The notes under the pieces: model-generated
The model's database searches: none
What the model was told of the DNA's origin: nothing
Seen by the model: the letters and a program-made list of their open reading frames with translations, nothing else
Position numbers and translations under genes: made by a program
Shown: positions 1,559 to 35,939 of the stretch, in pieces
How positions within the stretch are numbered: position 1 is the first letter of the stretch
How the letters are laid out: every line of letters starts with the position of its first letter
Assembly (NCBI GenBank): GCA_963785725.1
Contig: CAWAWS010000005.1
Span: 32,001 to 96,000 of the forward strand
Length of the DNA stretch: 64,000 nucleotides
Source: an uncultured delta proteobacterium
GTDB lineage: Bacteria > Myxococcota_A > Polyangia > Palsa-1104
Direction: 5' to 3'

Positions 1559-1574
1559 TGCGCATATCGTGCCA
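1559..1574 (-). promoter_or_regulatory. sigma54 promoter
   Basis: TGGCACGATATGCGCA (GG-N10-GC). Confidence 0.65.
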
Positions 1575-1635
1575 AGCTGCCCGCGCGCGCACGCTGGAGT
1601 CGCGTAGCTCGCCACCGGCGCGCTGTCGGAGATCG

Positions 1636-1678
1636 CGCAAGCCGCGCCGTCTTGGGCCACGCACGCGCAAGGCTTGCG
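1636..1678. promoter_or_regulatory. Paired enhancer-like boxes
   Basis: CGCAAGCCGCGCC (weak) and CGCAAGGCTTGCG, starts 30 bp apart. Confidence 0.55.
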
Positions 1679-1817
1679 CGCTTTGGTGATTTGCGGCCGA
1701 GCCGACCGCGAACGCGCGATTCATGCTGCTCTTGGCGGCGCCACTGCACAGACTGGGCGAGCCGCGCGAGACGACGACCGACCCGCGCTCGAGCGCGAGC
1801 GACGGCCGCTCGCTTCC

Positions 1818-2270
1818 CTACTTCGCGCCGGGCTGCGGACGCACGGTGACGACCGGAACGCTGCTCCGCCGCACCACTTGTTCCGCGACGCTGCCGAGCA
1901 CCAGGTGCTTGAAGCCACCGCGACCGTGCGTCCCCAAGACCACGAGGTCGAAGCGGCCCGAGTTGGCGAGCGATGTCACGACGTCCGCGGCCAAACCAAC
2001 TTGCACCTCGCCGGTGCACGGCGCCAGCTCGCGCGAGCGCTCGATCGCCTCGTCGATCCGCTTCTGTCCGCCGCTGACTTCGGCGGCGATGGCTTCGTTC
2101 ATCACGACGATGGCCTCGGGTGAAACGAACGTCGGCGGCTGCGCGACGTACAAGAGATGCAGCGCTGCCCCGAAGCGGCGCGCCAGCAGGACGGCGTATT
2201 CCATGGCCGGCTGCGAGCAGGCGGAGAAGTCGGTGGCGACCAGGATCCGTTTCGGTTCCGTGGGTTTCAT
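1818..2270 (-). CDS. Universal stress protein
   Basis: RILVATDFS...DLVVLGTHGRGG...LGSVAEQVVR. Confidence 0.93.
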   Translation of the reverse strand: MKPTEPKRILVATDFSACSQPAMEYAVLLARRFGAALHLLYVAQPPTFVSPEAIVVMNEAIAAEVSGGQKRIDEAIERSRELAPCTGEVQVGLAADVVTSLANSGRFDLVVLGTHGRGGFKHLVLGSVAEQVVRRSSVPVVTVRPQPGAK

Positions 2271-2283
2271 GAGACTGCGACGA

Positions 2284-2299
2284 AGCAAGCGACGTTCCA
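2284..2299 (-). promoter_or_regulatory. sigma54 promoter, near-leaderless
   Basis: TGGAACGTCGCTTGCT; ATG 15 nt after the -12 C. Confidence 0.75.
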
Positions 2300-2530
2300 G
2301 ACGTCGCGCGCGACGCACTCGGGGACAGCCGGCGACGACGCGGCGCCGCGCCGAACAAGACGAAGCCGGGATGGCAGGCCGGGTAGCCCAGAAAAAAAAA
2401 TGGACACGCTCGTCGAGAACGCAGACGCCGCTCGTCGATCACCAAAGGCTGAGATAGCCGGACAACGAAGTGCCGGCGCCCGCGAGCGGAGTCGCCACGC
2501 GCAGCTCCGTTTGGCTGCGCATGTCACGAC

Positions 2531-2986
2531 TCAGCCGTCGCCGCGGTCGTCGTCCGGCCCTTCGAGGTTGGCCTGGTGTCGGGCGACCTCGATGAGCGTC
2601 GCGGCCGCGCGCTCCGGCTTGTGCGCCGCGATGTCGGCCAGGCTGACGACACCGAGCGGCCGTCCCTCGCCGTCGGCGACGAGGATGCGCGACTTTTCGT
2701 GCAGGATCATCAAATCCTGCGCCCGCTGCACGTCGTCGGTGGCGCGGCACGATACGGGCTCCGGCGACATGACGTCCGAGACCCGTGTCTTCTTGGCCTT
2801 CAAGTTCTCGGCGCAGATGCGCAGCGCGAGGTCGCGATCGGTGACGACGCCGACGGCCTTGCCGGCTTTGTCGCAGACCGGCAGGAATCCGATGTTCCGG
2901 TCACGCATGCGACGCGCAGCCTCTTGGACCGTATCGTGACGACGAACGGTCTGAATCGACGTGCTCATGATCTCTTGGCACAGCAT
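2531..2986 (-). CDS. CBS-pair protein
   Basis: IGFLPV...VGVVTDRDL...LGVVSLADI; GGAGG RBS. Confidence 0.92.
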   Translation of the reverse strand: MLCQEIMSTSIQTVRRHDTVQEAARRMRDRNIGFLPVCDKAGKAVGVVTDRDLALRICAENLKAKKTRVSDVMSPEPVSCRATDDVQRAQDLMILHEKSRILVADGEGRPLGVVSLADIAAHKPERAAATLIEVARHQANLEGPDDDRGDG

Positions 2987-3010: not shown

Positions 3011-3026
3011 AGCAACCGATGTGCCA
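3011..3026 (-). promoter_or_regulatory. sigma54 promoter
   Basis: TGGCACATCGGTTGCT, near consensus. Confidence 0.8.
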
Positions 3027-3836: not shown

Positions 3837-3879
3837 CGCAAACCCTGCGCCGACAGCGAGCGCGAACGCAGAGCATGCG
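3837..3879. promoter_or_regulatory. Paired enhancer-like boxes
   Basis: CGCAAACCCTGCG and CGCAGAGCATGCG, 30 bp apart, 32 bp from the promoter. Confidence 0.7.
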
Positions 3880-3910: not shown

Positions 3911-3926
3911 TGGCATCGCTTTCGCT
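3911..3926 (+). promoter_or_regulatory. sigma54 promoter, near-leaderless
   Basis: TGGCATCGCTTTCGCT; ATG 15 nt after the -12 C; conserved upstream of the paralog at 21988. Confidence 0.7.
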
Positions 3927-3939: not shown

Positions 3940-5115
3940 ATGCACACGATCACGGTCTTCGTCATCCTTGCTGCGTTGGTGGCGCTCGCTTGGCAGTACC
4001 GGCGGTTGCTGCCGGCGGCACAAAGGCGCAGCGAGCCGCCGCCGCCACCGGCGCGATATCCTTCGTTGACGATGGTGCGACCCATCCGCGGCCTCGACTT
4101 CGGCGCGAGTGAGAACGTCACGGCGCTGCTCGCCTCCACGTATCCCGGGACACTGGAGCTTCTCTTCGTCCTCGATGACGAGAGCGACCCGGCGCTGCCG
4201 CTGGTGCGCGCGCTCGTCGCCGCGCATGTCGCCAAGCAGCCGCGGGCGCAGGTCAAGGTGCTGCTCGCGGGCGCGCCGCCGGCGGGACGCACCGGCAAGC
4301 TGCACGCGATGTCGGTCGGCGTCCGCCAGGCCACCGGCGAGCTCATCGGCTTCACCGACTCCGACACGCGGCTCGCGCCGGATCAGCTGCAGGCGATGGT
4401 CGCTGAGCTGCTCGCTTCGCCGCTCGCCGGCGACGTCTTTGCGCCAGCCGTCGCGGTGTCGCCGCCACGCACCATCGGCGATGCCGGCTATGCGCTCATG
4501 CTCAACAGCTGGTACGGCGCGGTCGCCGCCGCCAGCGCCGGCGAGACGCACGAGCTGCCCTTCATCATGGGTCAGCTCATGATCTTCCGTCGCGAGGCGC
4601 TCGTCGCCATCGGCGGCGTCGAGAGCGCCGACGGCCAGCTCGTCGACGACATGTACCTCGGCCGTCGCGTCGTCGCATTCGGTTACCGCAACCTCATGAG
4701 CCGTCAGCCGCTGCGCGTGGTCTCGGAGCAGCTCAGCCTGTCGGGCTTCGTCGTGCTCATGCGCCGCTGGCTCCTCTTTTCGCGCAGCGGTCTGCCCACG
4801 CGCTTCAAGCGTCCCGCCTGGATGCACGGCTTGGCGCTCGGTGTGACGCTGGCCGCGCTGTGTGGCGCGCTCATCGCCGGCTGGACGGCCGTCGCGATCT
4901 TCGCGGCGCTCACGCTGGCCATGGGCTGCATCGGCGACGTCTTCCTGCACCGGGAGCTGGGCGGCGCGCCCATGCCGCTCAAGTGGTGGTGGGTGACCTT
5001 GATCGTGCCGGTGCTCGGCCCGTTTGCGCTCGCTTCGCTGCTCTTCGACCGCCACGTCGACTGGCGTGGTCGCGACTACGCGCTCGACACCGGCGCGCAC
5101 CTCGGCCACTCGTAG
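3940..5115 (+). CDS. GT21/GT2 glycosyltransferase (ceramide glucosyltransferase/HpnI-like)
   Basis: RPIRGLD, GKL, DSD, MG, LVDD, MRRW, C-terminal TMs and WRGRDY. Confidence 0.85.
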   Translation: MHTITVFVILAALVALAWQYRRLLPAAQRRSEPPPPPARYPSLTMVRPIRGLDFGASENVTALLASTYPGTLELLFVLDDESDPALPLVRALVAAHVAKQPRAQVKVLLAGAPPAGRTGKLHAMSVGVRQATGELIGFTDSDTRLAPDQLQAMVAELLASPLAGDVFAPAVAVSPPRTIGDAGYALMLNSWYGAVAAASAGETHELPFIMGQLMIFRREALVAIGGVESADGQLVDDMYLGRRVVAFGYRNLMSRQPLRVVSEQLSLSGFVVLMRRWLLFSRSGLPTRFKRPAWMHGLALGVTLAALCGALIAGWTAVAIFAALTLAMGCIGDVFLHRELGGAPMPLKWWWVTLIVPVLGPFALASLLFDRHVDWRGRDYALDTGAHLGHS

Positions 5116-5321: not shown

Positions 5322-6389
5322 TCAGGGCTTGAGCGCGATCTTGAGGACGCCCTCGCGACGCTCGCCGAACAGCCGATAGGCGTCCACGACCTGGTCGAGC
5401 GCCATCGTGTGCGTCACGAGCGGCTGCAGGTCGAGCCGGCCATGCTCGACGAGCGCGAGCAGCCGGCGCATCCGCTCTTTGCCGCCCGGACAGAGCGAGG
5501 TGACGATGCGTTGGCCGCCGATTCCCGCACTGAACGCGTCGTTCGGCAGCTGCAGCTTGGTCGCGTAAACGCCGAGGCTCGACAATGTGCCGGCGGGACG
5601 CAAGCAGCGCAGCCCCTGCTCGAACGTCGCTTGGCTGCCGAGCGCTTCGATGGCGACGTCGGCGCCGCCTCCGGTCAGCCGCTTGACCTCGGCGACCACG
5701 TCCTGCGACTGCGGATTGAGGGTCACGTTGGCGCCCATGCGCCTCGACAGCTCACGCCGATAGCTCTCGGGATCGACGCCGATGATGAGCGCCGCGCCCA
5801 TGAGACGCGCGCCGACGACGGCGCACAGACCGATCGGCCCCTGCCCGAGCACGACGACCGCGTCGCCGAGCCGCACGCCGCCGGACTCCGCGCCGGCAAA
5901 ACCCGTCGACGCCACGTCCGCCAACATCAGCGCCTGCGTGTCGCTCACCGAGTCGGGAATCAGCGCCAAATTGGCCTGCGCATTGGGCACGCGCAGGTAC
6001 TCCGCTTGCGCGCCGTCGATGGTATGGCCGAAGCGCCAGCCGCCGGTCAGCTGATAGCCGGCGCCGTCGCCGCACTGCGCGCCGTTGCTCGAGAGGCAGG
6101 CCGCGCACTGGCCGCAGGGCGTGATGGCGCCGACGAGCACGCGCTGGCCCACCGAGTAGCCGCGCACGCCGGCGCCGATCTCGGCGATCACGCCGACGGC
6201 TTCGTGGCCCACCGTGAGGCCGGGCTCGATCGGGTATTCGCCACGCAAGATGTGCAGATCGGTCCCGCAGATCGTCGTCAGCGTCACCCGCATGACCACG
6301 TCGCCGGCTTGCGCGATCGGGATCGGCTTCTCGTCCAGGGCGATCTGCCCAACGCCGACGAATGCTGCGACCTTCATCGTCTTCTTCAT
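5322..6389 (-). CDS. Zn-dependent alcohol dehydrogenase (MDR family)
   Basis: CGTDLH, GHE, CGQCAAC...C, GQGPIG. Confidence 0.92.
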   Translation of the reverse strand: MKKTMKVAAFVGVGQIALDEKPIPIAQAGDVVMRVTLTTICGTDLHILRGEYPIEPGLTVGHEAVGVIAEIGAGVRGYSVGQRVLVGAITPCGQCAACLSSNGAQCGDGAGYQLTGGWRFGHTIDGAQAEYLRVPNAQANLALIPDSVSDTQALMLADVASTGFAGAESGGVRLGDAVVVLGQGPIGLCAVVGARLMGAALIIGVDPESYRRELSRRMGANVTLNPQSQDVVAEVKRLTGGGADVAIEALGSQATFEQGLRCLRPAGTLSSLGVYATKLQLPNDAFSAGIGGQRIVTSLCPGGKERMRRLLALVEHGRLDLQPLVTHTMALDQVVDAYRLFGERREGVLKIALKP

Positions 6390-6445: not shown

Positions 6446-6461
6446 TGCGAGGTGAGTGCCA
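6446..6461 (-). promoter_or_regulatory. sigma54 promoter (ADH)
   Basis: TGGCACTCACCTCGCA. Confidence 0.7.
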
Positions 6462-6521: not shown

Positions 6522-6564
6522 CGCAACGCTTGCGGCGCATGAACGCCGGCGCGCAAATCCTGCG
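6522..6564. promoter_or_regulatory. Paired enhancer-like boxes shared by divergent promoters
   Basis: CGCAACGCTTGCG and CGCAAATCCTGCG, 30 bp apart. Confidence 0.75.
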
Positions 6565-6604: not shown

Positions 6605-6620
6605 TGGCCCTCGTCTTGCG
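6605..6620 (+). promoter_or_regulatory. sigma54 promoter, near-leaderless
   Basis: TGGCCCTCGTCTTGCG; first ATG 15 nt after the -12 C. Confidence 0.7.
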
Positions 6621-6633: not shown

Positions 6634-7098
6634 ATGATGATGCGCAGGCTGTTGGTTCCCGTCGATTTCTCCGAGCGCTCGCGCGCGCAGCTCGACTACG
6701 CCTTCGCGCTGGCCGAGCTCACGAAGCTCGACGTCGACGTGCTGCACGTCATTGCCGGGCCGAGCCCGACGCGCGCGGCGGTCGACGCCTACGTCGGCCG
6801 CCCGATGCCGCACGTCTCGCGGCTCGACGAATCGACGGCCTATCAAGAGCTGGGCGACCTCGTGGACATCTGTCTCCGGCGCGGTATCGTGCCGCGCTTG
6901 CTGGTCGAGGCCGGCGACGTGGCCTCCGCCATCGTCCGCGTCGCCGCCGAGGCGCCGGCCGACCTCATCGTGCTGGCGACGCGCGGCCATCGTGGTGTCG
7001 CCGAGCTGCTCCTCGGCAGTGTCGCCCACGCGGTGATCACGACCGCCGGGTGCCCCGTCGTCACGCTCGGCGAAGCGGCGACGCGCGGCACGCGCTGA
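6634..7098 (+). CDS. Universal stress protein
   Basis: RLLVPVDFS...DLIVLATRGHRG...LGSVA. Confidence 0.9.
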   Translation: MMMRRLLVPVDFSERSRAQLDYAFALAELTKLDVDVLHVIAGPSPTRAAVDAYVGRPMPHVSRLDESTAYQELGDLVDICLRRGIVPRLLVEAGDVASAIVRVAAEAPADLIVLATRGHRGVAELLLGSVAHAVITTAGCPVVTLGEAATRGTR

Positions 7099-8372
7099 TG
7101 CGCCTCGTCGACGCCGAGGAAGCGATCGCGCTCGCGGTGTCCTCGGGCCGGCAGCTGTTCGTGCAAGGTGGCGCCGCGACGCCGTCGCTGCTGCTGGCGG
7201 CGCTGGCGGCTCGCGGGCCGACGCTCGACGGCGTCGGGGTCGTGCATCTGCACTGCGAAGGCGCCGCGCCCCATCTCGCACCCGAGCTGGCCGGCCACCT
7301 GCGCCATCGCGCGCTCTTCGTCGGCGCCAATGCACGCGCGGCGGTCGCCGAAGGACGCGCGGACTACATTCCCGTCTTCCTCTCCGACATTCCGCGGCTG
7401 TTCGCGCGGCGCCAGCTGCGCATCGACGTCGCGCTCGTCAACGTCTCGCCGCCCGACGCGCACGGCTACTGCACGCTCGGCCCGTCGGTCGACGTCACGA
7501 TGGCGGCCATCGAAGCCGCCGACGTCGTCGTCGCGCAGATCAACAGCGGTCTGCCGCGCGTCCTCGGCGACGGCATTCTCCACGTCGACGACATCGACTT
7601 CGGCGTCGCCTGCGCCATACCACCCTACGTTAGTGCCGTGCACGAGGTTGGCGACGTCGAGCGCCGCATCGGTCAGCACGTGGCCGAGCTCGTGCCCGAC
7701 GGCGCGACGCTGCAGCTCGGGATCGGCGGGCTGCCGGGCGCGATCTGCGCTGCGCTCGCGGACAAGCGCCACCTCGGCATCCACAGCGAGCTGTTCTCCG
7801 ACGGCGTCGTCGACCTGGTGGAGCGCGGCGTCGTCGACGGCGCCGCCAAGGAGCTCGATCGCGGCAAGATCGTCGCCGCCTTCGTCGTCGGCAGTCCGCG
7901 CGTCTATCGCTTCATCGACGACAACCCGATGGTCGAGCTGCGGCGCGCTGACTACACCAACGATCCGGGCGTCATTCGCCGGTTCCGCAAGATGGTCGCC
8001 GTCAACAGCGCCATCGAGGTCGACTTGACGGGCCAGGTGTGCGCCGACTCGATCGGCGCGCGCATCTACAGCGGCGTCGGCGGCCAAGTCGACTTCTTGC
8101 GCGGGGCGGCGCTGGCCGACGAAGGCCGCGCCATCGTCGCGCTGCCCGCCTGCGCCGCCGGCGGACGCCTCTCGCGCATCGCGGCCGAGCTGCAGCCGGC
8201 CGCCGGCGTCGTCACGACGCGCGCGCACGTCCATACCGTCGTGACCGAATACGGGGTCGCCGAGCTGCACGGCCGGGCCATCGGCGAGCGCGCGCGGTCG
8301 CTCATCGCCATCGCGGCGCCGCAGTTCCGGGAGGCGCTCACGGCCGAGGCCCGGCGGCGTCACTACCTCTGA
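7098..8372 (+). CDS. Acetyl-CoA hydrolase/4-hydroxybutyrate CoA-transferase family protein
   Basis: TGATG overlap; DGATLQLGIGG, HLGIHSE, NSAIEVDLTGQV, SGVGGQVDF, VVTEYG. Confidence 0.92.
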   Translation: MRLVDAEEAIALAVSSGRQLFVQGGAATPSLLLAALAARGPTLDGVGVVHLHCEGAAPHLAPELAGHLRHRALFVGANARAAVAEGRADYIPVFLSDIPRLFARRQLRIDVALVNVSPPDAHGYCTLGPSVDVTMAAIEAADVVVAQINSGLPRVLGDGILHVDDIDFGVACAIPPYVSAVHEVGDVERRIGQHVAELVPDGATLQLGIGGLPGAICAALADKRHLGIHSELFSDGVVDLVERGVVDGAAKELDRGKIVAAFVVGSPRVYRFIDDNPMVELRRADYTNDPGVIRRFRKMVAVNSAIEVDLTGQVCADSIGARIYSGVGGQVDFLRGAALADEGRAIVALPACAAGGRLSRIAAELQPAAGVVTTRAHVHTVVTEYGVAELHGRAIGERARSLIAIAAPQFREALTAEARRRHYL

Positions 8373-8412: not shown

Positions 8413-8465
8413 CGCAGTGTTTGCGGCCCGAATCGGGCTCACGACTCATCGACGCAAGCCTTGCG
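8413..8465. promoter_or_regulatory. Paired enhancer-like boxes
   Basis: CGCAGTGTTTGCG and CGCAAGCCTTGCG, 40 bp apart, 32 bp from the promoter. Confidence 0.7.
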
Positions 8466-8496: not shown

Positions 8497-8512
8497 TGGT
8501 CCGTAGGTTGCT
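8497..8512 (+). promoter_or_regulatory. sigma54 promoter of the cytochrome operon, near-leaderless
   Basis: TGGTCCGTAGGTTGCT; ATG 14 nt after the -12 C. Confidence 0.72.
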
Positions 8513-8524: not shown

Positions 8525-11020
8525 ATGCGAAGCCGCCCAATCCTCCTCGCGCTGTGTGTGGCTCTCGGCTGCGAAGGTCCGCGCGGGCCGGCGGGAGCGA
8601 CGGGTCCAGCCGGTGCCACCGGTCCGACCGGCGACGCGGGAGCGCCCGGCGCGACGGGTCCGAGCGGCGACGCCGGCACCAACGGCTGCCCCGGCCTCGA
8701 GCCGGGCGCGACCGTCGGCCTGAACGCCGTCGTCGACCTCTCGACTCCGGCCAACGGCAGCTTCTTCGTCGTCGGTGAACGCGCCAAGGTCACGATTCAC
8801 TTCACCAACGGCTGCGGGCAGACCTTGCGGCCGAGCGACCTCGGGACGGCGAGCCTGTATCTGTCGGGACCGCGGCTCGGCTCGCTGACGACGACGGCGG
8901 CCAAGCTGCTCAACTGCGTCACCGATCGCAGCGCGACCGACGGCCAGCACCACTACATCAACCTGCGCAGCCCGAGCTACGCCGATCCGTCGCAAGCCAA
9001 CTTGAGCAGCGCCGCCGACGGCACGCTGACCTACACCTTGGCGCCCGTCAGCGACGAGGCCGCCGGCACGTACACGCTCGGCGTCTGGGCCAAGAGCACC
9101 GACGACAAAGACCAGCTGTTCCCGACGCTCGACTTGCAAATCGGCAACGCCACCGCCGAAACCTTTGCCAGCGGTCCGAGCGCGACGTCGACCTGCTACT
9201 CGTGCCACCGCGGCGCGCAGTCCGGCAAGTCTTATCAGGCGCACATCATCCCCGGCTTCTCGCCCGAGGGAAACTACGCGCTCGACGCCACGCCCATCGC
9301 CACCTGCAAGCTCTGCCACAACCTCGACGGCTACAGCGCCAATCCCACCGTGCGCAAGGTCCACGGCGCACATCGCGGTGCCAACCAGCTGGCGCCCGGC
9401 GTCGCTCACCCCGAGTACGGGCTCGCCGCCGATCCGACGCTGGCCGAGCTCACCGACGTCACGTTCCCGTCGATGCCGGGCGCCGAGAACGACTGCGGCA
9501 AGTGCCACGTCGACGCGCGCTGGAAGACGGCGACGCGGCTCGCCTGCGGCACCTGCCACGACAACCTCTTCTTCGACACCGGCACGCTGACGCCGCCGCG
9601 CACGTTCGGCCCGCCTCCCGCCGGCGCGTGCACGTCGGACGCCGCCTGCGGCGTCTTCGGCGACTTCGCGACCTGCGATTTGCCGTCGGGGAGCTGCTTG
9701 CGCAAGACGCACCCGCCGCAGGCCGACGACGCCCAATGCAGCGTCTGCCACACCCCCGACCCGCCGGGGCTGGCAGCGGTCTCAGCGGTGCACGCGATCC
9801 TGCCGGTCACGGCGAACCCGGGCCTCACGCTGAGCAACGTCACGCTGAGCGGCGCCAGCGGCAGCGGCGGCGCGTTCATTGCCGGCACCGACACGCCGGT
9901 CGTGACCTTCGCGCTCGTCGACGGAACCGGGACGGCCATCGCCACGCTCAAGTCGAGCTCGGTCTTCTCGGCCACCGCCATCGTGTCCGGCCCCACCGAC
10001 GACCGGCAGCGCGTCTACGGACCGCTCACCCTGAAGTCGCAAGGCACGCTCGCCTTCGACGCCACCAAGGGTCTCTATACGTACACCTTCCCGACCGCGT
10101 TTCCGGTCGGCGCGCTCGCGCCCTACAACACGACCGCGCCCTACAGCCGCGCCAACGGGCCCGGCACGTACACGCTGTGGCTCTACGTCAATGAGACCGT
10201 GACCGCGAGCGGTCAGACCTTCCGCGCCGCGGCCAACTCAATCGTCGACTTTCCCGTCGGCACCGCCGGGCCGGTGCAGCCGCGTCAGGTCGTCGCCGAT
10301 GCCGCGTGCAACGGCTGCCACGTCAACGTGCAGGCGCACGGCGGCTCGCGACAGGGCGTCGGCAGCCAGTGCTCGAATTGCCACACCAAGGGCGCGCTCG
10401 ACTTCGGCGTCGGCTCGAAGGGGCTCGCCTGCACGACGAGCGCGCAGTGCGGCGGCAACGCCGCCGGCTGGGAAGCGTGCCAGGACACCAACGGCGACGG
10501 CACGCCCGACAGCTGCGTGGTCACCGTCGATCCCACGCCCGGTCAGACCATCGACTTCGGCGTGCTCGCGCACGACATCCACTACGCCCGCCTCCGCGAC
10601 GGCTACGCCGAGCGCAACAACCTCGTCGCACCGGGCACGCTCACCGTGCTCGGCTATCAGAACGCGCTGTCGAGCTTCGCCACGGATCTGCTTCCGCAGG
10701 ACGTGCGCAACTGCAAGACCTGCCACGCCGACGCCGGCGGCAGCTGCTCGGCGACGCAGCCGTGCGGCATCGGTCAGTCGTGCGTGAGCGGCAGCTGCGT
10801 CAACGTCGCCTGGCTGACGCCGTCGACCCGCGTCTGCACTTCGTGCCACGACGACGCCAGCACCGCCGGCCACGCCGCCATCAACACCTGGACGGACGGC
10901 AGCGGCAACGTCATCGAGACCTGCGCCACCTGCCACGGCTCGGGCGCGCAATTCGCCGTCGACGTCGTGCACCAGATCGCCTCGCCCTACGTGCCGCCCT
11001 ATCCGCGAGAGAAGCAATAG
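8525..11020 (+). CDS. Decaheme c-type cytochrome lipoprotein, OmcA/MtrC-like
   Basis: Lipobox ALGC, collagen-like G-x-x linker, 10 CxxCH in two groups of 5 separated by beta-rich domains; RQVV...CNGCH...HGGSR. Confidence 0.88.
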   Translation: MRSRPILLALCVALGCEGPRGPAGATGPAGATGPTGDAGAPGATGPSGDAGTNGCPGLEPGATVGLNAVVDLSTPANGSFFVVGERAKVTIHFTNGCGQTLRPSDLGTASLYLSGPRLGSLTTTAAKLLNCVTDRSATDGQHHYINLRSPSYADPSQANLSSAADGTLTYTLAPVSDEAAGTYTLGVWAKSTDDKDQLFPTLDLQIGNATAETFASGPSATSTCYSCHRGAQSGKSYQAHIIPGFSPEGNYALDATPIATCKLCHNLDGYSANPTVRKVHGAHRGANQLAPGVAHPEYGLAADPTLAELTDVTFPSMPGAENDCGKCHVDARWKTATRLACGTCHDNLFFDTGTLTPPRTFGPPPAGACTSDAACGVFGDFATCDLPSGSCLRKTHPPQADDAQCSVCHTPDPPGLAAVSAVHAILPVTANPGLTLSNVTLSGASGSGGAFIAGTDTPVVTFALVDGTGTAIATLKSSSVFSATAIVSGPTDDRQRVYGPLTLKSQGTLAFDATKGLYTYTFPTAFPVGALAPYNTTAPYSRANGPGTYTLWLYVNETVTASGQTFRAAANSIVDFPVGTAGPVQPRQVVADAACNGCHVNVQAHGGSRQGVGSQCSNCHTKGALDFGVGSKGLACTTSAQCGGNAAGWEACQDTNGDGTPDSCVVTVDPTPGQTIDFGVLAHDIHYARLRDGYAERNNLVAPGTLTVLGYQNALSSFATDLLPQDVRNCKTCHADAGGSCSATQPCGIGQSCVSGSCVNVAWLTPSTRVCTSCHDDASTAGHAAINTWTDGSGNVIETCATCHGSGAQFAVDVVHQIASPYVPPYPREKQ

Positions 11021-22003: not shown

Positions 22004-22015
22004 AAGAGCCGCGCC

Positions 22016-24805: not shown

Positions 24806-24899
24806 GACTCTCCTGATCGGGCGGCGACGACGACTGTACTCGAAGCGAGCCGTCACTGCCGATCAGCGTGCGCGCCGCGACCACGATGCAGCCGTGCGA

Positions 24900-25337: not shown

Positions 25338-25373
25338 GCTCGCGTCCAATGCAGCGGGCGAGCCAGCGGCCGC

Positions 25374-25793: not shown

Positions 25794-25822
25794 CTCGCGC
25801 TCCTCCAAAACCTGGGCGAGTC

Positions 25823-26458: not shown

Positions 26459-26482
26459 CGTGCACCTCCACGTCATCCGCTA

Positions 26483-26573
26483 TGAGAAAAGCGTGCCGGC
26501 TAAAGGGCGCGATGGACCCTGATCTTTCGCGCAAACGCTGCGCCCGCCGGCAGATCGCGCGCCAAATCGTGCG
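26483..26573 (-). promoter_or_regulatory. Variant sigma54 promoter with paired boxes
   Basis: CGGCACGCTTTTCTCA (-12 GC>TC) at 26483-26498; boxes CGCAAACGCTGCG (26530) and GCCAAATCGTGCG (26561). Confidence 0.55.
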
Positions 26574-26601
26574 CGGGTCGCCGCTCGGTTGCGCGTCGGC
26601 T

Positions 26602-26763
26602 TCAGCGTTTCGCGGGGCGCCTTCGTTTGCGCGCGATGGTCGCGGCCGACGCCTTCTTGCTCTTGCCGGCTTTGGCGCGGGTCGTGCGCTGTTTGCGCGC
26701 GGCCGGGATGAAGATCGAGAGCTCGTGAATCAGATCGTCTTCGGAGTCTTTCTGCTTGGTCAT
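26602..26763 (-). CDS. 53-aa highly basic small protein
   Basis: MTKQKDSEDDLIHELSIFIP followed by a K/R/A-rich tail; GAGG upstream. Confidence 0.5.
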   Translation of the reverse strand: MTKQKDSEDDLIHELSIFIPAARKQRTTRAKAGKSKKASAATIARKRRRPAKR

Positions 26764-26913
26764 ACGCGCCTCAGCTTGATCATCGCTCGCCGCCGTGCAG
26801 GCGCCTCCGCGACGATACATTGCGCAACGTCTTCGCTTTCATTCGTCATGACAGGTCGTGGCGCCGCGTTTCGTCGAGGCGGAGGAGGAGCGCGACCGTG
26901 TCCTCGCGACCGC

Positions 26914-27411
26914 TCATGACGCATGCTCGGTCACGACCGGCGTCACTGTCCTCGCCTCTTGGACCGCCGCCGCGCGAATCGTCAGCACCGGAATCGGCGA
27001 GCGCCGCATGACCGCCTCGGCGATCGAGCCCATCAAGAGGCGACGCAAGCCGGTGCGCCCGTGCGTACCCATGACGATGAGATCGTAGTGGCCCGATTCG
27101 GCCAGCCGCAGAATCTCGTCTGCCGGCGCGCCCATCAACGCCTGCGCCGTCACCTCGATGCCGGCGGCGCGCGCGACGACCGCTGCGCGCGCCTGCGCCA
27201 GCGCCGTCTCGGCGCGCTCGGTCACCCCCCACAGCTCGTCGGCGGTCGCCGGGAACGCGCTGCCGTCGGGCAGGATGATGCCCGGCGGACCGTACACGTG
27301 CACCAGCTCGATCGCGCCACCGGCGGTCGGAGCCAAGGCGACGGCCACCTCGGCGGCGGGCATGGCGTTGGCCGAGAAGTCGGTGGGTACCAGAATTCGC
27401 TTGAATCGCAT
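26914..27411 (-). CDS. Universal stress protein
   Basis: RILVPTDFS...DLIVMGTHGRTG...MGSIAE; GAGGA RBS. Confidence 0.93.
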   Translation of the reverse strand: MRFKRILVPTDFSANAMPAAEVAVALAPTAGGAIELVHVYGPPGIILPDGSAFPATADELWGVTERAETALAQARAAVVARAAGIEVTAQALMGAPADEILRLAESGHYDLIVMGTHGRTGLRRLLMGSIAEAVMRRSPIPVLTIRAAAVQEARTVTPVVTEHAS

Positions 27412-27451
27412 GTGATCCTCCTCGAGCGTGCTCATCGCCGAATGGCCGATC

Positions 27452-27715
27452 TCATCGCGTGACGCGCACGACGTCACCGACTGGTCGCCGCGCGGTCGGC
27501 GGAACGGCCGACCCATAGCCGAGGCGCAAGACGAGCTGCGGATGTCCCGTTTGGCCCAACGGATCGCGCAGCCGCTCGCGCATGAGGAAGCGCCAAGGCT
27601 GCGAGTTGTGCGTCGAAGGCGCCAAGATGGCGAAGCGCGCGGCGAAGGCCAGCTTCTCCTCGTCCGAGCCCTGCGCCGGGAATTCGCCGACGTCCTGTCG
27701 AGCCTCGAGGTCCAT
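27452..27715 (-). pseudogene. Internally deleted Acg-type nitroreductase
   Basis: N-terminal LAPSTHNSQPWRF joined in frame to C-terminal PQLVLRLGYG...TARRPV. Confidence 0.7.
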
Positions 27716-27728
27716 GCTCGTTCCTTAT

Positions 27729-27744
27729 TGCCAATGACGTGCCG
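27729..27744 (-). promoter_or_regulatory. sigma54 promoter, near-leaderless
   Basis: CGGCACGTCATTGGCA; ATG 15 nt after the -12 C. Confidence 0.68.
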
Positions 27745-27775
27745 GCGCGAAAAGCCGGCCGAGCGTTCCCGATCG

Positions 27776-27818
27776 CGCAAGCGATGCGCCGGCGCTCGAT
27801 GGAGACGCAAAGGCAGCG
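27776..27818. promoter_or_regulatory. Paired enhancer-like boxes
   Basis: CGCAAGCGATGCG and CGCAAAGGCAGCG, 30 bp apart. Confidence 0.68.
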
Positions 27819-28015
27819 CGAACGCACGCGCGCGCCGACTGACGCCGAGCGTCGCGCCCAGCTGCGGGCGCAGTCGCCGTAACACGCTCGAAGATGCCTT
27901 TACTGCGCGAAGTCAATGGGCGGCGTGAAGAGCAACGGTTGCGCGGGACAGCGTGCCGTGCCGCGGCGCTTACGGGCGCGACGCGTCGGTGGTCGAGTCG
28001 AGCTCGGTCCGGGGA

Positions 28016-29389
<1,374 letters not shown>

Positions 29390-29463
29390 CTGTTCCTCTC
29401 GATTCCGCTGTTCGCCAGGCAAGCCATCGTCGAATCGGTGCGCGCAACTGCTCCTGCGAGCCA

Positions 29464-29479
29464 AGCAAGCTTCGCGCCA
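29464..29479 (-). promoter_or_regulatory. sigma54 promoter of the activator gene
   Basis: TGGCGCGAAGCTTGCT. Confidence 0.78.
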
Positions 29480-29511
29480 GCCAGAGGAACCCAGCTGGCG
29501 CGTCACACGCC

Positions 29512-29554
29512 GGCAAACGTTGCGCCGGTACCGAGCACAAACGCAAGCTTTGCG
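29512..29554. promoter_or_regulatory. Paired enhancer-like boxes
   Basis: GGCAAACGTTGCG and CGCAAGCTTTGCG, 30 bp apart. Confidence 0.75.
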
Positions 29555-29627
29555 CGTATCAGTCCAGCTGAGGCGGAGCCTGCGGCGAGTCGTTCTTTCT
29601 AGGGCGACACGCGTCGGGATGGAGGCG

Positions 29628-30434
29628 CTATCGCTTCGGCGCTCCGGCCGTCCGCGGTTCACGTTCGAGGAGCCACCAGCGCGGCCGCGGGCGACGGTAG
29701 CTCAAGCCGAAGTCGGACAGCGCACGGGCGCGCACCAAGGCGGCGGCCTCTTGCGGCGAGTCGGTCAGCACGAGGCGGTCGACATCGATGACGTCGATAG
29801 TGCCGCTGCCGAGCAGTCGCTCGCGCAGATAGCCGAGCAGCGGACGCCAATGATCGACGCCCAAGAGGACGATGGGAAAGTCGATCATCTTGCCGGTCTG
29901 AATCAGGACGGCCACTTCGAAGAGCTCATCGAGCGTCCCAAAGCCGCCCGGCACGGCGATAAAGGCGTAGGAGTATTTGGCCAACATCAGCTTGCGCACG
30001 AAGAAATAGCGAAACTGCACCCAGTCATCGAGATAGACGTTCGGCCTCTGTTCGGCGGGCAGGATGATGTTGCAACCGATCGAGCGGCCCTGGACATCCT
30101 TGGCGCCGCGATTGGCCGCCTCCATCAGCCCCGGCCCGCCGCCGGTCAAGACCGTGAATCCAGCGCGCGCGAGCTCGGCCCCGAGCTCCCGCGTCATCGC
30201 ATAATAGGGATGAGTCGGGCCGAAGCGCGCCGAGCCGAAAACCGTCGCGCACGGCCCGGCGAAGTGCAGGTGGCGAAAGCCGCGAATCATCTCGCCGAAG
30301 ACGCGGAAGGCAACGCGGAGCTCACGGTGTCGTGCGCGCGGGCCGACGAGAAATCGCTGCTCCTCGGCATCGCCCGTCGACTTGCCCCATTCCGGCTCCT
30401 CTGGCGTCGCGGCCGGGGCCAGCGGCTGGCTCAT
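29628..30434 (-). CDS. LOG-family (TIGR00730-like) Rossmann-fold protein
   Basis: [29 protein letters not shown]. Confidence 0.92.
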
Positions 30435-30469
30435 CTCCCGCTCGGATCTTGGCGCATGTCGCAGCGCCA

Positions 30470-30485
30470 TGCGAGCGACATGCCG
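30470..30485 (-). promoter_or_regulatory. sigma54 promoter
   Basis: CGGCATGTCGCTCGCA. Confidence 0.6.
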
Positions 30486-30557
30486 ATATGAGCAGTCACC
30501 CTCGAGCACCCGTCGGTCACTCATCTCGATGCGATCTGCGCGAGACGGCCTGAGATG

Positions 30558-30573
30558 CGGCACGCGCCTTGCT
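30558..30573 (+). promoter_or_regulatory. sigma54 promoter
   Basis: CGGCACGCGCCTTGCT, near consensus. Confidence 0.78.
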
Positions 30574-30670
30574 GTCTGCCAGACGTGAAGCTGCCCATGA
30601 TGAAGTCGAAGATGATACTGAGCCAGGCTGGCAGTCCGGCGCCGCAGCTGACCTCGGACCGGTGGTTCTA

Positions 30671-31042
30671 ATGGCGTCCCACCCTCCAGCCGGCGGAGGT
30701 GCTCCGGCGCGGATTCTCGTCGTCGACGCGGAGCCGAACGCGACGTCTGCGCTGGCCGAGCTCTTGGGCGACGAAGGCTACGAGGTCTATTGCGCGGACA
30801 ACGGGGCGTCGGCGCAAGTGAGCTTGCAAGCGCTGTGTCCCGATCTGCTGCTGACCGGTCTGCAACTTCCCGGCGCCCAATCGCTCGAGGAGACCGCCGC
30901 GCAGCTCTCGACGGCCATCGTGCGCATGCTGGCGACCGGTCCGGTTCGTGGCGACGGATCGGCCGTGCTGCTCAAGCCGATCGATGTCGGCGAGCTGTTG
31001 GCGATGGTCGAGGGCGCGCTGGCACGGCGACACTCCCGTTAG
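30671..31042 (+). CDS. Atypical (pseudo-)receiver domain protein
   Basis: RILVVDAE...DLLLTGLQLPG (phospho-Asp replaced by Gly)...LLKP. Confidence 0.7.
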   Translation: MASHPPAGGGAPARILVVDAEPNATSALAELLGDEGYEVYCADNGASAQVSLQALCPDLLLTGLQLPGAQSLEETAAQLSTAIVRMLATGPVRGDGSAVLLKPIDVGELLAMVEGALARRHSR

Positions 31043-31458: not shown

Positions 31459-31474
31459 TGGAACGTTTGATGCT
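31459..31474 (+). promoter_or_regulatory. sigma54 promoter
   Basis: TGGAACGTTTGATGCT. Confidence 0.72.
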
Positions 31475-31496: not shown

Positions 31497-32000
31497 ATGG
31501 ACGTCTACGAGATTATGACGACGCCAGCTCAAACGCTGAACCCGGAAAATACGCTCGATAGCGCCGCCCGCTTGATGCGCGACCGCTCAGTCGGTTGCGT
31601 GCCCATTGTCAGCACCGACGACAAGCTCATCGGCATCCTGACCGATCGCGACATCGTCATGGCGGCTTCGCTGGCCGACCGGACCTTGTCGTCGCTGCGC
31701 ATCGCCGATGCCATGCACGCGCCGGTGCACGCGTGTCACGCCGACGACGACATCGCGGTGTCCGCGCGCATCATGCGTCAGCATCGCGTGCGGCGGCTGC
31801 CGGTCGTCGACGCCACCGATCGGCCTATCGGCATCGTGTCGCTGGACGACCTGGCCAACGCTTCCCGCCAGCCGACGATCGATCCCACGCCCGGCTTGAC
31901 CGCCGACGAGCCCGGCGACGCCTATCATGCGACCTCGGGCCGCAGCAAACAGCCGCACGACAGCCAGCCGGACTGGATGCAGCGCGCGAGACAACGCTAA
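31497..32000 (+). CDS. CBS-pair protein (paralog of 16368 and 16924)
   Basis: GCVPIV...LTDRDI...; shared tail PGL...ATSGRSK. Confidence 0.92.
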   Translation: MDVYEIMTTPAQTLNPENTLDSAARLMRDRSVGCVPIVSTDDKLIGILTDRDIVMAASLADRTLSSLRIADAMHAPVHACHADDDIAVSARIMRQHRVRRLPVVDATDRPIGIVSLDDLANASRQPTIDPTPGLTADEPGDAYHATSGRSKQPHDSQPDWMQRARQR

Positions 32001-33334: not shown

Positions 33335-33631
33335 CCGCTTCGTCATAGCCGCGTCCCGGCTCCGCGCGCGAGCAATCTGCGATGAATGGAGTCAACCAAT
33401 ACGACCTCATCACATACGAGAGTCGCTCGGGGCGACAAAATACGTTTGTTCCGCCGTTCGTCGGCCACCTCGTCGCGATACGGCTCGCTGTTGCAATGCG
33501 GCGCTCGCAACCTACGATACGCAGCGAGAACGGAGCTTCGTAGCTCGGCAGTAGCCGCGTCGCCCACGTCCGTACGACGAGCAGCGGACCATTCGCTATG
33601 TATCGATGTCCATCATCCGGAGGACTGAATC

Positions 33632-34618
33632 ATGCAAGCGATGGTGCTGAAGCAGCTCCGCGCAGCGCTCGAATGGACCGACCTCGCAGATCGTTTGCCG
33701 GGACCGGGTCAGATTCGTGTGAAGGTAACGGCCTGCGGCGTCTGTCGTACCGACCTTCACGTGGTGGACGGTGAGCTGCCCAATCCTTCGCTGCCCATCA
33801 TTCCCGGACACGAAATCGTCGGCCGAATCGACGCCATCGGCGACGGCGTCCAAGGCTTGCGAATGGGTGAGCGCGTCGGTATCCCCTGGCTTGGCCATAC
33901 CTGCGGCGTCTGTCCGTACTGCTTGGCAAACCGCGAGAACCTCTGCGACAGCCCGCTCTTCAACGGCTACACGCGCGACGGCGGCTTCGCCACGTCGGCG
34001 ATCAGCGACGCGCGCTACGCGTTCCCGCTCGGCGAGCTCGGCAGCGATGTGGCGCTTGCTCCGCTGCTCTGCGCTGGGCTCATCGGCTGGCGCTCCTTGG
34101 TCATCGCCGGCCCCGCCCGCCGATTGGGGCTCTACGGCTTCGGCGCCGCCGCTCACATCCTCACGCAAGTGGCCCGATCGCAGGACCGCTCGGTGTTTGC
34201 CTTCACTCGTCCCGGGGACGTTGCCGCGCAGACCTTCGCGCGAAAGCTCGGCGCCGAATGGGCGGGCGGATCCGATGAAATAGCGCCGCTGCCGCTCGAC
34301 GCCGCGATCATCTTCGCCACCGCCGGAGAGCTCGTGCCGATGGCGCTCAAAGCCGTGAAAAAGGGTGGCCGAGTCGTTTGCGCGGGTATCCACATGAGCG
34401 ACATTCCGAGCTTTCCTTACGAGCTGCTTTGGGAGGAGCGCCAACTATTGTCAGTCGCGAATTTGACTCGGCAAGATGGACTCGACTTCCTCGCCATGGC
34501 GCCGCGAATCGGTATCACGACGCAAACGACGCAGTATTCGCTCAAGGATGCCAATCGCGCGCTGGCGGACCTACGCGCCGGCCGCTTCGAGGGAGCCGCC
34601 GTCCTCGTGCCGCCGTAA
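33632..34618 (+). CDS. Zn-dependent alcohol dehydrogenase (AdhP-like)
   Basis: CRTDLH, GHE, CGVCPYC...C, LLCAG, YGFGAAA. Confidence 0.93.
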   Translation: MQAMVLKQLRAALEWTDLADRLPGPGQIRVKVTACGVCRTDLHVVDGELPNPSLPIIPGHEIVGRIDAIGDGVQGLRMGERVGIPWLGHTCGVCPYCLANRENLCDSPLFNGYTRDGGFATSAISDARYAFPLGELGSDVALAPLLCAGLIGWRSLVIAGPARRLGLYGFGAAAHILTQVARSQDRSVFAFTRPGDVAAQTFARKLGAEWAGGSDEIAPLPLDAAIIFATAGELVPMALKAVKKGGRVVCAGIHMSDIPSFPYELLWEERQLLSVANLTRQDGLDFLAMAPRIGITTQTTQYSLKDANRALADLRAGRFEGAAVLVPP

Positions 34619-34752
34619 GCGCTGCCGCCACTCAGGCGCAACGAGCGCTCGAGCCCGACGCGTGCCACCGTCCGATCTACCGGGCCGAAACCTGTGTGCG
34701 GCCTGCCGTCGCAACTGGATTCTTGTTGGCCGACTCCGGCCGCCGCGCTCGG

Positions 34753-35142
34753 TCAACGCGCGGGCGCAGTCGGAGACGCGGGCGCGAAATACTGGCGAAC
34801 GAAGGCCGCCACTTGCCGATTCGTCGGATGATCGACGGTCTCGACGCCGGCGATGCCGAAGCTCAGCGTCGCGGCGTGCGCGGTCACGTAGTCGCGAAAA
34901 TGCAGCTTGGCATCCGCCGGTCCCAAGAGCAGCACGCTCTCCGAGCCGGCCAGCGACTGCGCCACCGCGGCGAAGAAACGCCCTTGATCGTCGGGATGAT
35001 GATGCGGCGACGCCTGCCCTCGCGGATGACGCAAGACATGCGTAGGCGCCCGCAGCGTGGACACCGTGAAGCTCTCGGGGTCAACGTGAAATACGTGGGC
35101 CTCTTGATGGTCGATCCAGAGGGCCGCTTGATGAAGCTGCAT
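34753..35142 (-). CDS. eRF1-domain-2-like ('translational machinery') protein
   Basis: WIDHQEAHVF...FFAAVA...LLLGPADAK...ETVDHPT. Confidence 0.7.
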   Translation of the reverse strand: MQLHQAALWIDHQEAHVFHVDPESFTVSTLRAPTHVLRHPRGQASPHHHPDDQGRFFAAVAQSLAGSESVLLLGPADAKLHFRDYVTAHAATLSFGIAGVETVDHPTNRQVAAFVRQYFAPASPTAPAR

Positions 35143-35384
35143 GGGACACGCTCACTCTCTTGACAGGGTCGCCCGGAGTTGGGCGACAGACGCAGACAGC
35201 ACGCGCGAGGACACGGAAGCATGCATTCAGCCTCGAATCGTACAGTCGGCATCTGCCAATGTAGTCATTCCCCCGAAAGTGCAATGACCCAATTCGAATA
35301 ATCGTCTTGCTCGTGTAGACACGTCCTTGAAGGCGGAGACGCAGCGCTGGCCACCGTTCGAGCCGCGCGCTTCGGCTGTTCTAC

Positions 35385-35837
35385 TCATCGCGCGCCGGAA
35401 TGAATCGTGAGGACGGGAATGAGGCTGCGGCGCACGACCTGCTCGGCCACGCTTCCGAGCAGCAGATGCTTGAAGCCGCCGCGCCCGTGCGTGCCCAGAA
35501 TCACGAGGTCATAACGTCCCGAGTTGGCCAGGCCCACTGCCACATCGGCGGCCAAGCCGACGACCACTTCGCCGCTGAGCGCGGCCAAGTCGGCCTGTGC
35601 GAGCGCGACCAGCGCCGCGTCCATTCGCTTGTGTCCCTCCAACACTTCCGCTTCGATCGCGCGATCGACGATGCAAATCGCGTCGGGCGCCACGAAGGTC
35701 GGCGGCTCGGCGACGAAGAGCAAGCTCAAGGTCGCTTTGAAGCGCCGCGCCAAAATCACGGCATAGTCAGTCGCCGGCTGCGAACAGAGGGAGAAGTCGG
35801 TGGCGACGAGGATGCGGCGCGGCTCGGTCGGTTTCAT
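35385..35837 (-). CDS. Universal stress protein (close paralog of 1818-2270)
   Basis: MKPTEPRRILVATDFS...GTHGRGGFKHLLLGSVAEQVVR. Confidence 0.93.
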   Translation of the reverse strand: MKPTEPRRILVATDFSLCSQPATDYAVILARRFKATLSLLFVAEPPTFVAPDAICIVDRAIEAEVLEGHKRMDAALVALAQADLAALSGEVVVGLAADVAVGLANSGRYDLVILGTHGRGGFKHLLLGSVAEQVVRRSLIPVLTIHSGAR

Positions 35838-35849
35838 GATTGAACGCGA

Positions 35850-35939
35850 CGCAACATCCATTCCGTGCCGGCTGGCCGAGCCGCCCGCGATCAACCCGCA
35901 ATCAGTGCGACACTCGATGGCGCCGGCTCGTTTCTTGCT
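35850..35939. promoter_or_regulatory. Divergent sigma54 promoters with a central box
   Basis: (-) CGGAATGGATGTTGCG 35850-35865; box CGCAATCAGTGCG 35897-35909; (+) CGGCTCGTTTCTTGCT 35924-35939. Confidence 0.7.

Follow-up and report, generated by a model that had tools for sequence, protein, structure and literature searches.

Which protein reads the paired palindromes that stand beside a run of sigma-54-type promoters in an uncultured myxobacterium, and what does it switch on? The DNA in question is a stretch of 64,000 nucleotides (the window, G000:C5:32001-96000) from contig CAWAWS010000005.1 of GCA_963785725.1, an 8.9-Mb, 47-contig assembly of ~68–70% G+C placed in the Polyangia; positions given without a contig are those of the window. 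Its part between 1.5 and 36 kb, here called the island, carries ten pairs of a short dyad, CGCA-N5-TGCG (the boxes), next to promoters of the −24/−12 type. It is very probable, judging from the sequence, that the paired boxes are the enhancer sites of an NtrC-family activator of the NmpR type, and that the island is the clustered low-oxygen regulon of this activator. The motif itself is not new. The initial annotation of the window took it to be undescribed, whereas GCGCA-N5-TGCGC had already been shown to be the binding site of NmpR, an NtrC-like activator of Myxococcus xanthus, by electrophoretic mobility shift assays with mutated sites and by lacZ reporters (McAllister et al. 2025, PMC11841059). 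As the published work already covers the motif, the pairing, and the connection with sigma-54 (PMC11841059), the operator is not presented as a discovery.

What has been reported for NmpR? Its promoters have two sites, and the gap between them is 14–15 nt in five of seven bound promoters, equal to 29–30 bp from centre to centre; the nmpU promoter has a gap of 24 nt, and that of pilR one of 5 nt (PMC11841059). Expression requires the proximal site together with the sigma-54 site, and NmpR activates both its own operon and the nmpUTS operon (PMC11841059). The regulon comprises 7 promoters and 23 genes, with a CBS protein, a universal stress protein (USP), a P-type ATPase with a cbb3 oxidase, hemN, a hemerythrin, and the nmp genes themselves (PMC11841059). 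NmpU is a haem protoglobin kinase, NmpT consists of two receivers, and NmpS is a receiver-HisKA-CA hybrid kinase (PMC11841059, PMC6211767); the NmpRSTU phosphorelay was the subject of related earlier work (Bretl et al. 2018, PMC6211767). The available text of the 2025 paper contains no rule of helical phasing or of a fixed distance between S2 and the promoter, and it makes no mention of Polyangia (PMC11841059). In a literature search on NmpR, NmpU, and NmpRSTU, only three relevant papers came up, and all were on M. xanthus. The proposed identification with NmpR draws on the operator, the partner genes, and the content of the regulon, rather than on an alignment to MXAN_4240.

Paired boxes and sigma-54-type promoters

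The ten pairs (20 boxes) listed in the initial annotation are all present in the sequence, and their spacings are as it described. The spacing is 30 bp in six of them (pair 1, 1636-1678; pair 2, 3837-3879; pair 3, 6522-6564; pair 5, 15756-15798; pair 9, 27776-27818; pair 10, 29512-29554), 31 bp in three (pair 6, 18733-18776; pair 7, 21914-21957; pair 8, 26530-26573), and 40 bp in one (pair 4, 8413-8465). Fourteen of the 20 boxes match CGCA-N5-TGCG exactly. The six imperfect ones begin at 1636, 15756, 21914, 26561, 27806, and 29512; the weakest are 1636 (6.4 bits), whose partner at 1666 is perfect, and 26561 (7.2 bits), the second box of pair 8. A symmetrised matrix of the 20 boxes reads (G/C)CGCA(A)-N3-(T)TGCG(C/G), with flanks that favour G or C. 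On a gene map of the window, drawn from Pfam matches, the codon-position GC pattern, and inspection of start codons, all ten pairs are intergenic.

Could such boxes and spacings arise by chance in a genome of 68–70% G+C? CGCA and TGCG are frequent words in such DNA, the genome holds 592 exact matches (4.3 per 64 kb), and eight exact matches in the window are unpaired and mostly intragenic. These observations are outweighed, and chance is refuted as an explanation. The window has 22 exact matches, compared with 8.1 ± 2.9 in 100 shuffled sequences, none of which reaches 22 (maximum 16), and 21 of the 22 fall between 1.6 and 36 kb. Genome-wide, the histogram of spacings has a sharp peak, with 12 pairs at 30 bp (7 in the window, counting one extra, overlapping pair) and 6 at 31 bp (3 in the window), against 0–7 pairs at each remaining spacing from 16 to 74 bp. 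The intergenic position of every pair also argues against chance, as does the persistence of the arrangement in related genomes, even at loci of 57% G+C. Convincing pairs outside the window were found at C3:533771 and at C24:187634, 193416, and 206747, such that the island holds 10 of the genome's ~14 strong pairs.

Strong boxes that are unpaired and have no promoter occur as well, at 8817, 10695, 15037, 16161, 16636, 22619, 26823, 27931, 30739, 33254, and 35030, and are treated here as chance or unexplained. Those at 33254, 35030, 8817, 22619, and 15037 score 13–15 bits and are intragenic; single boxes of this kind are commoner than the genome average predicts.

How are the pairs placed relative to promoters? 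Promoters were called as GG-N10-GC with at least 9 of 12 positions of the general sigma-54 consensus, and distances were taken from the centre of the proximal box to the first G of GG. Twelve sites of this type point away from the box pairs, and their distances fall into three classes. The first class, at 38–40 bp, has six members: 3911-3926 (+, 39 bp), 8497-8512 (+, 39 bp), 21988-22003 (+, 38 bp), 26483-26498 (−, 39 bp), 27729-27744 (−, 39 bp), and 29464-29479 (−, TGGCGCGAAGCTTGCT, 40 bp). The second, at 48–50 bp, has four: 6605-6620 (+, 48 bp), 15841-15856 (+, 50 bp), 18817-18832 (+, 48 bp, with a weak −12 element), and 21857-21872 (−, 49 bp). The third, at 68–69 bp, has two: 6446-6461 (−, 68 bp) and 1559-1574 (−, TGGCACGATATGCGCA), the latter at 69 bp as measured to the weak box 1636 and at 99 bp as measured to its partner 1666. 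A 13th and weaker candidate, 35850-35865 (−, CGGAATGGATGTTGCG), is 39 bp from a single, unpaired box at 35897-35909 (CGCAATCAGTGCG). The edge-to-edge distances in the initial annotation had given a distribution of 7/3/2, which agrees within one with the 6/4/2 obtained here from centres. Sites at 21807(−), 18663(−), 26673(+), 1734(+), and 3980(+) were set aside because they fall outside the phase classes or would allow no leader.

The island is also dense in sigma-54-like sites as such. A matrix built from 45 promoters of this lineage, 7 of them window sites, detects 14 sites of at least 13 bits in 1.5–36.5 kb, whereas 1.7 per 35 kb would be expected from the genome average; the remaining 27.5 kb of the window has 2. 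The ~20 promoters that the initial annotation had paired with boxes correspond to the number of sigma-54-type sites in the island, but only 12–13 of them carry the operator.

Promoter-proximal enhancers on one face of the helix had been proposed for this stretch, and the centre distances in the window and in relatives bear this out. Measured from the predicted start site, the centre of the proximal box is ~63 or 73 bp upstream, and the distances always differ by whole helical turns. Between box and promoter, the aligned 39-bp and 49-bp classes show no IHF-like, conserved, or AT-rich bend block. The messages themselves may be unusual. Across 44 units from the window and its relatives, the start codon lies 14–16 nt past the C of the −12 element in 18, none of which has a Shine-Dalgarno match, whereas most of the remaining units have GGAGG and 23–32 nt between that C and the start codon. 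Cases of the short interval include the starts at 3940, 8525, 22016, 2270(−), 27715(−), 35953, and 35843(−), and loci L013–L027 among the relatives. This suggests that some sigma-54 messages are near-leaderless. A search of sequencing runs with the stretch 21000-30999 listed no RNA run. A rigid, loop-free sigma-54 switch, into which this lineage would have built its NmpR-type activators, can be imagined from these features, with dyads 30 bp apart and 39 or 49 bp from the −24 element on one helical face, pairs often shared by divergent promoters that are each 39 bp from the nearer box, and, at many promoters, leaderless transcripts beginning 1–3 nt before the ATG. We put this forward tentatively, as a proposal more apt to fail than to hold. 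If true, it would describe a compact, modular cassette of enhancer, promoter, and start codon whose mechanics are unlike those of the textbook looping enhancer.

The proposed activator and its putative partner kinases

Which protein would bind the pairs? The island contains one gene for an NtrC-type activator (28016-29389, −). Its product of 457 residues has the Pfam domains Response_reg (REC), Sigma54_activat, AAA_lid_14, and HTH_8, with GAFTGA in the sigma-54 AAA+ domain and D54 present in the translation. Ahead of this gene stand pair 10, with boxes at 29512 and 29542, and the promoter at 29464-29479, and pair 10 is predicted to be an autoregulatory operator. Moreover, in 10 of 14 related genomes the same kind of pair occurs close to an orthologous activator. 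These observations uphold the proposal of the initial annotation that the boxes are the operator of a single NtrC-type activator family. D54 and V87 of the activator correspond to positions mutated in NmpR, a weak match because D54 is common in the family. The genome encodes >50 NtrC-type activators, most of them 45–50% identical to that of the window. A stretch of the recognition helix ending in (K/T)IQY(K/R)L is common to the orthologues and differs in the other activators of the genome.

It is conceivable that an altogether different protein binds the palindromes, for example a repressor or the NarL/FixJ-type regulator encoded at 37008-37715, just past the island, and that the proximity to sigma-54 promoters is incidental. 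We regard this as highly improbable. An NtrC-type protein binds the same dyad in M. xanthus (PMC11841059), the pairs travel with activator orthologues in relatives, and their fixed distance and orientation relative to the −24/−12 elements fit an enhancer-binding protein. In addition, the NarL-type gene has no boxes near it.

A more serious alternative concerns a second copy of the activator. The gene at C24:191865-193217 encodes a protein 86% identical to that of the window, and the two recognition helices are identical. The operator may thus be real but have the C24 activator as its main or co-acting regulator; the paralogues might divide the promoters between them or form mixed rings, and the window activator might be only one output of the system. 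Several facts favour this view. A REC-HisKA-HATPase hybrid kinase of 373 residues, similar to NmpS, is divergent from the C24 copy and adjoins that copy rather than the one in the window. Box pairs are present on C24 as well, with a CBS gene behind another of them near the hybrid kinase, and two activator copies also occur in two genomes of the same genus. On the other hand, the copy in the window has an operator and a promoter to itself, 10 of the ~14 strong pairs in the genome surround it, and the boxes show no split into two classes. On balance, leadership by the C24 copy appears possible but the less favoured arrangement. The initial annotation had named the activator at 28016-29389 as the most likely regulator. 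Its own pair and promoter support that choice, which is nevertheless incomplete, given that an 86%-identical copy exists on C24 and the window protein need not act alone.

Two further arrangements on C24 involve the same boxes. At C24:193416-193458 (L032 ~11417-11459), a good pair lies between the convergent genes for the activator paralogue and a receiver-PAS-GGDEF-EAL protein, and no adjoining promoter was found there. At C24:206714-206837 (L116 ~4715-4840), one pair lies midway between divergent sigma-54-type promoters, each 39 bp off; one leads to a receiver-GGDEF gene and the other to a receiver gene and, behind it, an ETR1_N-PAS hybrid kinase gene. Through the latter arrangement, the oxygen relay may be connected with cyclic di-GMP.

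Which signal would reach the activator? The initial annotation did not include a sensor kinase gene at the left edge of the window, and its account of the regulator was incomplete in this respect too. Behind pair 1 and the promoter at 1559-1574, an nmpU-like gene encodes a globin-coupled histidine kinase with Protoglobin, HisKA, and HATPase_c domains; its 5′ part occupies 1-859 (−), and it continues past the left edge to G000:C5:31702. The globin domain matches PDB 5ohe, a ‘globin-coupled histidine kinase’, over 157 residues (E 1e-55), with GRVHVRIGLPQHYMFGAMN common to both, and the aligned part covers the stretch around the proximal histidine. The next gene downstream, outside the window and also behind pair 1, encodes two REC domains, as in NmpT. 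With the NmpS-like kinase on C24, the nmp genes of this organism are split between two contigs.

Haem-globin sensors are able to bind several gases. It is therefore worth asking whether the wiring is NmpR-like but the signal something other than oxygen shortage, such as nitric oxide, carbon monoxide, or redox state, with the island as a general stress or dormancy set. The richness of the island in USP and CBS proteins, which are general stress and energy-state families, and its want of high-affinity oxidase genes would suit this idea. Three observations point the other way. First, the globin domain closely resembles the one in the Anaeromyxobacter globin-coupled kinase, which is reported to be active when oxygen-bound (PMC11841059, PMC6211767). 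Second, mxan_4236 of M. xanthus is induced by hypoxia through NmpR (PMC11841059). Third, a hemerythrin, a radical-SAM enzyme, and a metal-domain P-type ATPase stand behind the same operator in relatives. A signal other than oxygen is consequently rated as unlikely.

How might an oxygen-responsive NmpR-type system work here? By analogy with M. xanthus, the oxygen-bound haem kinase NmpU would phosphorylate and silence the hybrid kinase NmpS (PMC11841059, PMC6211767); when oxygen drops, NmpS would phosphorylate NmpR, as carried over from the work on that species. An AAA+ ring, formed from the NmpR dimers at both boxes, would then open the adjoining closed complex of sigma-54 RNA polymerase. Little or no DNA looping may be needed for the ring to contact the promoter, which it would approach on one helical face, because the distances change in steps of one turn and no conserved or AT-rich bend site is present. 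Judging from their families, the encoded proteins would help the cell to cope with a shortage of oxygen: USP and CBS proteins, the P-type ATPase, alcohol dehydrogenase (ADH), acetyl-CoA hydrolase/transferase, phosphoglucomutase, multihaem cytochromes, and GT21 glycosyltransferases.

The same arrangement in related genomes

Is the arrangement peculiar to this genome? The nearest named relatives of the window's proteins are metagenome bins labelled Polyangia, Polyangiaceae, or Polyangiales. Among the matches listed, the proteins homologous to the activator are all metagenomic, at least 72% identical, and designated ‘Polyangia bacterium’ where named. A scan of genome contigs matched 80 loci, mostly of unrelated taxa, at 42–64% identity. 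Clear orthologues of the activator, with 60–86% identity, are present in relatives of the same genus, the same family, and the same order. We compared 19 loci around activator homologues from 14 related genomes, together with the organism's own C24 locus. Pair spacings in these loci are 30 bp (26 pairs), 31 bp (5), and 29 bp (4), with no other spacing from 16 to 80 bp represented more than twice.

The geometry of the promoters is conserved as well. For this comparison, promoter-like sites within 300 bp of a pair were collected from the relatives' loci, the window, and the C24 and C3 regions. Of these sites, 71 point away from the pair, with 31 at 38–41 bp and 14 at 47–51 bp, and only 4 point towards it. 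It is common for one pair to serve divergent promoters on both of its sides, with ~39 bp between each promoter and the nearer box. The genes behind the operator in relatives overlap with the M. xanthus regulon. Among 36 operator-plus-promoter units in relatives, the first gene encodes a CBS protein in 11, a USP in 9, the activator in 6, and cytochrome c' in 2; a globin kinase, a GT21 protein, an MtrC-like cytochrome, a radical-SAM protein, a hemerythrin, and a metal-domain P-type ATPase account for one each, one first gene has weak other matches, and 4 have no match.

A second comparison began from the kinase. In 20 neighbourhoods of NmpU-like genes across the phylum, an activator 55–67% identical to that of the window lies beside the kinase in 14, and 13 of these 14 have pairs at 29–31 bp (17 pairs: 13 at 29 bp, 3 at 30 bp, and 1 at 31 bp). 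The six neighbourhoods with only a 39–41% identical activator, or with none, have no pairs. Within the same class, other orders have box-to-promoter distances of 40, 41, 50, 51, 68, 68, and 118 bp. In a family of another class (f16, L136–L141), one operon contains the globin kinase and activator genes side by side, and the pairs are 29 bp apart; the promoters are 84, 121, 142, 142, 159, and 191 bp off, a remote distance of the classical type. Hence the short distance between box and promoter looks lineage-specific, although the numbers are small. No locus with the published M. xanthus nmp layout was found in the phylum and class genome samples, and the published nmpR primer, used as a pattern against 401 genomes, gave only a chance match with 2 mismatches, in this genome.

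What weighs against reading the island as an NmpR-type regulon? First, the box matrix was made from the boxes of the initial annotation, so scores within the window are circular; the controls that are free of this are the shuffles, the genome-wide count, the genome-wide histogram of spacings, the relatives' loci, and the kinase neighbourhoods of the phylum. Second, two of the 12 promoters lack GC at −13/−12: the candidate at 21857-21872 (CGGCACGGTTCTTCCA) has CC, and that at 26483-26498 (CGGCACGCTTTTCTCA) has TC. Both were accepted solely on account of where they lie and of the gene starts that follow. Third, no box lies within 170 bp of another seven or eight good sigma-54 promoters of the island. 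Among these are 2284-2299 (−, TGGAACGTCGCTTGCT, a strong site), 3011-3026 (−, TGGCACATCGGTTGCT), 16330-16345 (+), 17881-17896 (+), 30558-30573 (+), 31459-31474 (+), and 35924-35939 (+, CGGCTCGTTTCTTGCT), which lie ahead of USP, CBS, and other genes, and each of them leads to a ribosome site and an ATG or straight to an ATG. The activator may act on these from the nearest pair, 0.5–2 kb off, or another of the >50 activators may serve them. Fourth, four of the 19 relatives' loci (L023, L028, L029, and L031) have no pair at 29–31 bp, and one of them, L023 (G015:C281:1-19000), encodes a 75%-identical activator with no box of at least 9 bits in 19 kb. Fifth, the activators adjacent to NmpU-like genes form two groups, one 55–67% identical and with boxes, the other 39–41% identical and without them, and NmpR of M. 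xanthus could belong to either.

Island genes and comparison with known systems

What does the island encode? Pfam matches identify at least six USP genes and at least six CBS-pair genes, along with a VIT1 transporter, two GT21 glycosyltransferases, two Zn-dependent ADHs, an acetyl-CoA hydrolase/transferase, a 7-kb run of multihaem and c-type cytochromes, a P-type ATPase, a phosphoglucomutase, and a LOG-like gene; unless another basis is given, the families named below are Pfam assignments.

At the left end, an open frame with no Pfam match (1020-1490, −), recognized by its codon-position GC pattern and of uncertain start, lies between the promoter at 1559-1574 and the nmpU-like gene. On the far side of pair 1, a USP-like gene (1818-2270, −), whose product begins MKPTEPKRILVATDFS and whose family was assigned from this N-terminus and from likeness to the USP at 35385-35843, follows the boxless promoter at 2284-2299. 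A CBS-pair gene (2531-2986, −) follows that at 3011-3026. Behind pair 2 and the promoter at 3911-3926, a gene for a GT21-family glycosyltransferase begins with the ATG at 3940 (3940-5115, +). Pair 3 is flanked by divergent promoters, that at 6446-6461 for a Zn-dependent ADH gene (5322-6389, −) and that at 6605-6620 for a USP-like gene (to 7098) followed by the acetyl-CoA hydrolase/transferase gene (6634-8372 in all, +).

Pair 4 and the promoter at 8497-8512 precede the cytochrome run (8525-15742, +; first ATG at 8525). The first gene of the run (8525-11020) encodes an MtrC/MtrF-like cytochrome with a collagen-like N-terminal repeat, and such a gene is also the first one behind an operator in a relative (L013:12318-14825); this hints at extracellular electron transfer at low oxygen. 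Three CBS and two USP genes form an array (15878-18630, +) behind pair 5 and the promoter at 15841-15856, and the boxless promoters at 16330-16345 and 17881-17896 are internal to it. After pair 6 and the promoter at 18817-18832 comes a small frame (18861-19061).

Pair 7 is again flanked by divergent promoters. The candidate at 21857-21872 faces a P-type cation ATPase gene (19211-21779, −), and the promoter at 21988-22003 faces a second GT21-like gene (22016-23123, +; ATG at 22016). The ATPase gene is read in two frames and the GT21-like gene in three (two frame changes); these may be decaying genes or assembly errors. Pair 8 and the candidate at 26483-26498 stand ahead of a likely operon (23153-26458, −) of CBS (25823-26458), USP, CBS (24900-25349), and phosphoglucomutase (23153-24856) genes, and pair 9 and the promoter at 27729-27744 stand ahead of a small frame (27452-27715) and then a USP gene (26914-27715 together, −). 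Beyond the activator gene, the boxless promoter at 30558-30573 precedes a REC-containing frame, and that at 31459-31474 precedes a CBS gene (31497-32000, +). At the right end, a USP gene (35385-35843, −), whose product begins MKPTEPRRILVATDFS, follows the weak candidate at 35850-35865; the promoter at 35924-35939 leads away from it to an ATG at 35953. Beyond 36.5 kb (37008-47359) lie the gene for the NarL/FixJ-type response regulator, a phosphoketolase gene, and an alternative F-type ATPase operon that starts with the beta subunit; no NmpR-type boxes were found near these three.

What are the implications? If correctly read, the island offers a second and much larger view of the targets of an NmpR-type oxygen relay: fermentative and carbon-storage enzymes, extracellular-type multihaem cytochromes, lipid glycosyltransferases, and many USP and CBS proteins, in a group of uncultured soil myxobacteria regarded as aerobes. 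What may be new here are the short, phased distance, the pairs common to divergent promoters, and the leaderless-like start codons. These comparative rules go beyond the published work on M. xanthus, and such rules would aid the prediction of regulons for sigma-54 activators.

How does the system compare with those already described? The closest counterpart is NmpRSTU of M. xanthus. Both organisms have the dyad GCGCA-N5-TGCGC with sigma-54 promoters, and paired sites about three helical turns apart, or four turns at one promoter in each. Both have the operator and a sigma-54 promoter ahead of the activator and globin-kinase genes, here at the level of sequence only, and NmpU-, NmpT-, and NmpS-like proteins are present, here not all at one locus. 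The genes for CBS proteins, USPs, and a P-type ATPase are shared with the NmpR regulon. There are also clear differences. The nmp genes here are spread over two contigs and the activator is duplicated. The proximal site of the island has a fixed distance of ~39 or 49 bp from the promoter, a rule not given in the available text of the M. xanthus paper (PMC11841059). About 12 operator-bearing promoters lie within 35 kb, compared with 7 scattered promoters and 23 genes in M. xanthus. Finally, the cargo consists here of multihaem cytochromes, ADH, acetyl-CoA hydrolase/transferase, phosphoglucomutase, and GT21 proteins, and the cbb3 oxidase, hemN, and pilR of the M. xanthus regulon are missing from the island.

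Classical NtrC enhancers, such as those of glnAp2, have sites ~100–150 bp upstream of the promoter and act by DNA looping, often with the help of IHF. The island shares with them two dyads about three turns apart, an AAA+ ring, sigma-54 RNA polymerase, and control by phosphorylation. It differs from these typical distances in that the centre of the proximal box is 38–50 bp from GG at 10 of the 12 promoters, and no conserved or AT-rich bend site is present.

The USP-rich hypoxia or dormancy regulons of DosR/DevR in Mycobacterium tuberculosis and of the low-oxygen-activated locus of Burkholderia form a third point of comparison; they are controlled by NarL- or FNR-type regulators at sigma-70-type promoters. 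The regulator encoded at 37008 was considered as a DosR-like protein and dropped, as ChrA and NarL head its PDB matches and DevR ranks eighth. DosR/DevR is named in the discussion of the NmpR paper (PMC11841059). The likeness to these systems is functional only, in that USP, CBS, cation ATPase, and fermentative genes are clustered under an oxygen-linked two-component output. The means of control is different: in the island, this output would be delivered by an NtrC-type activator acting at sigma-54 promoters of the −24/−12 type.

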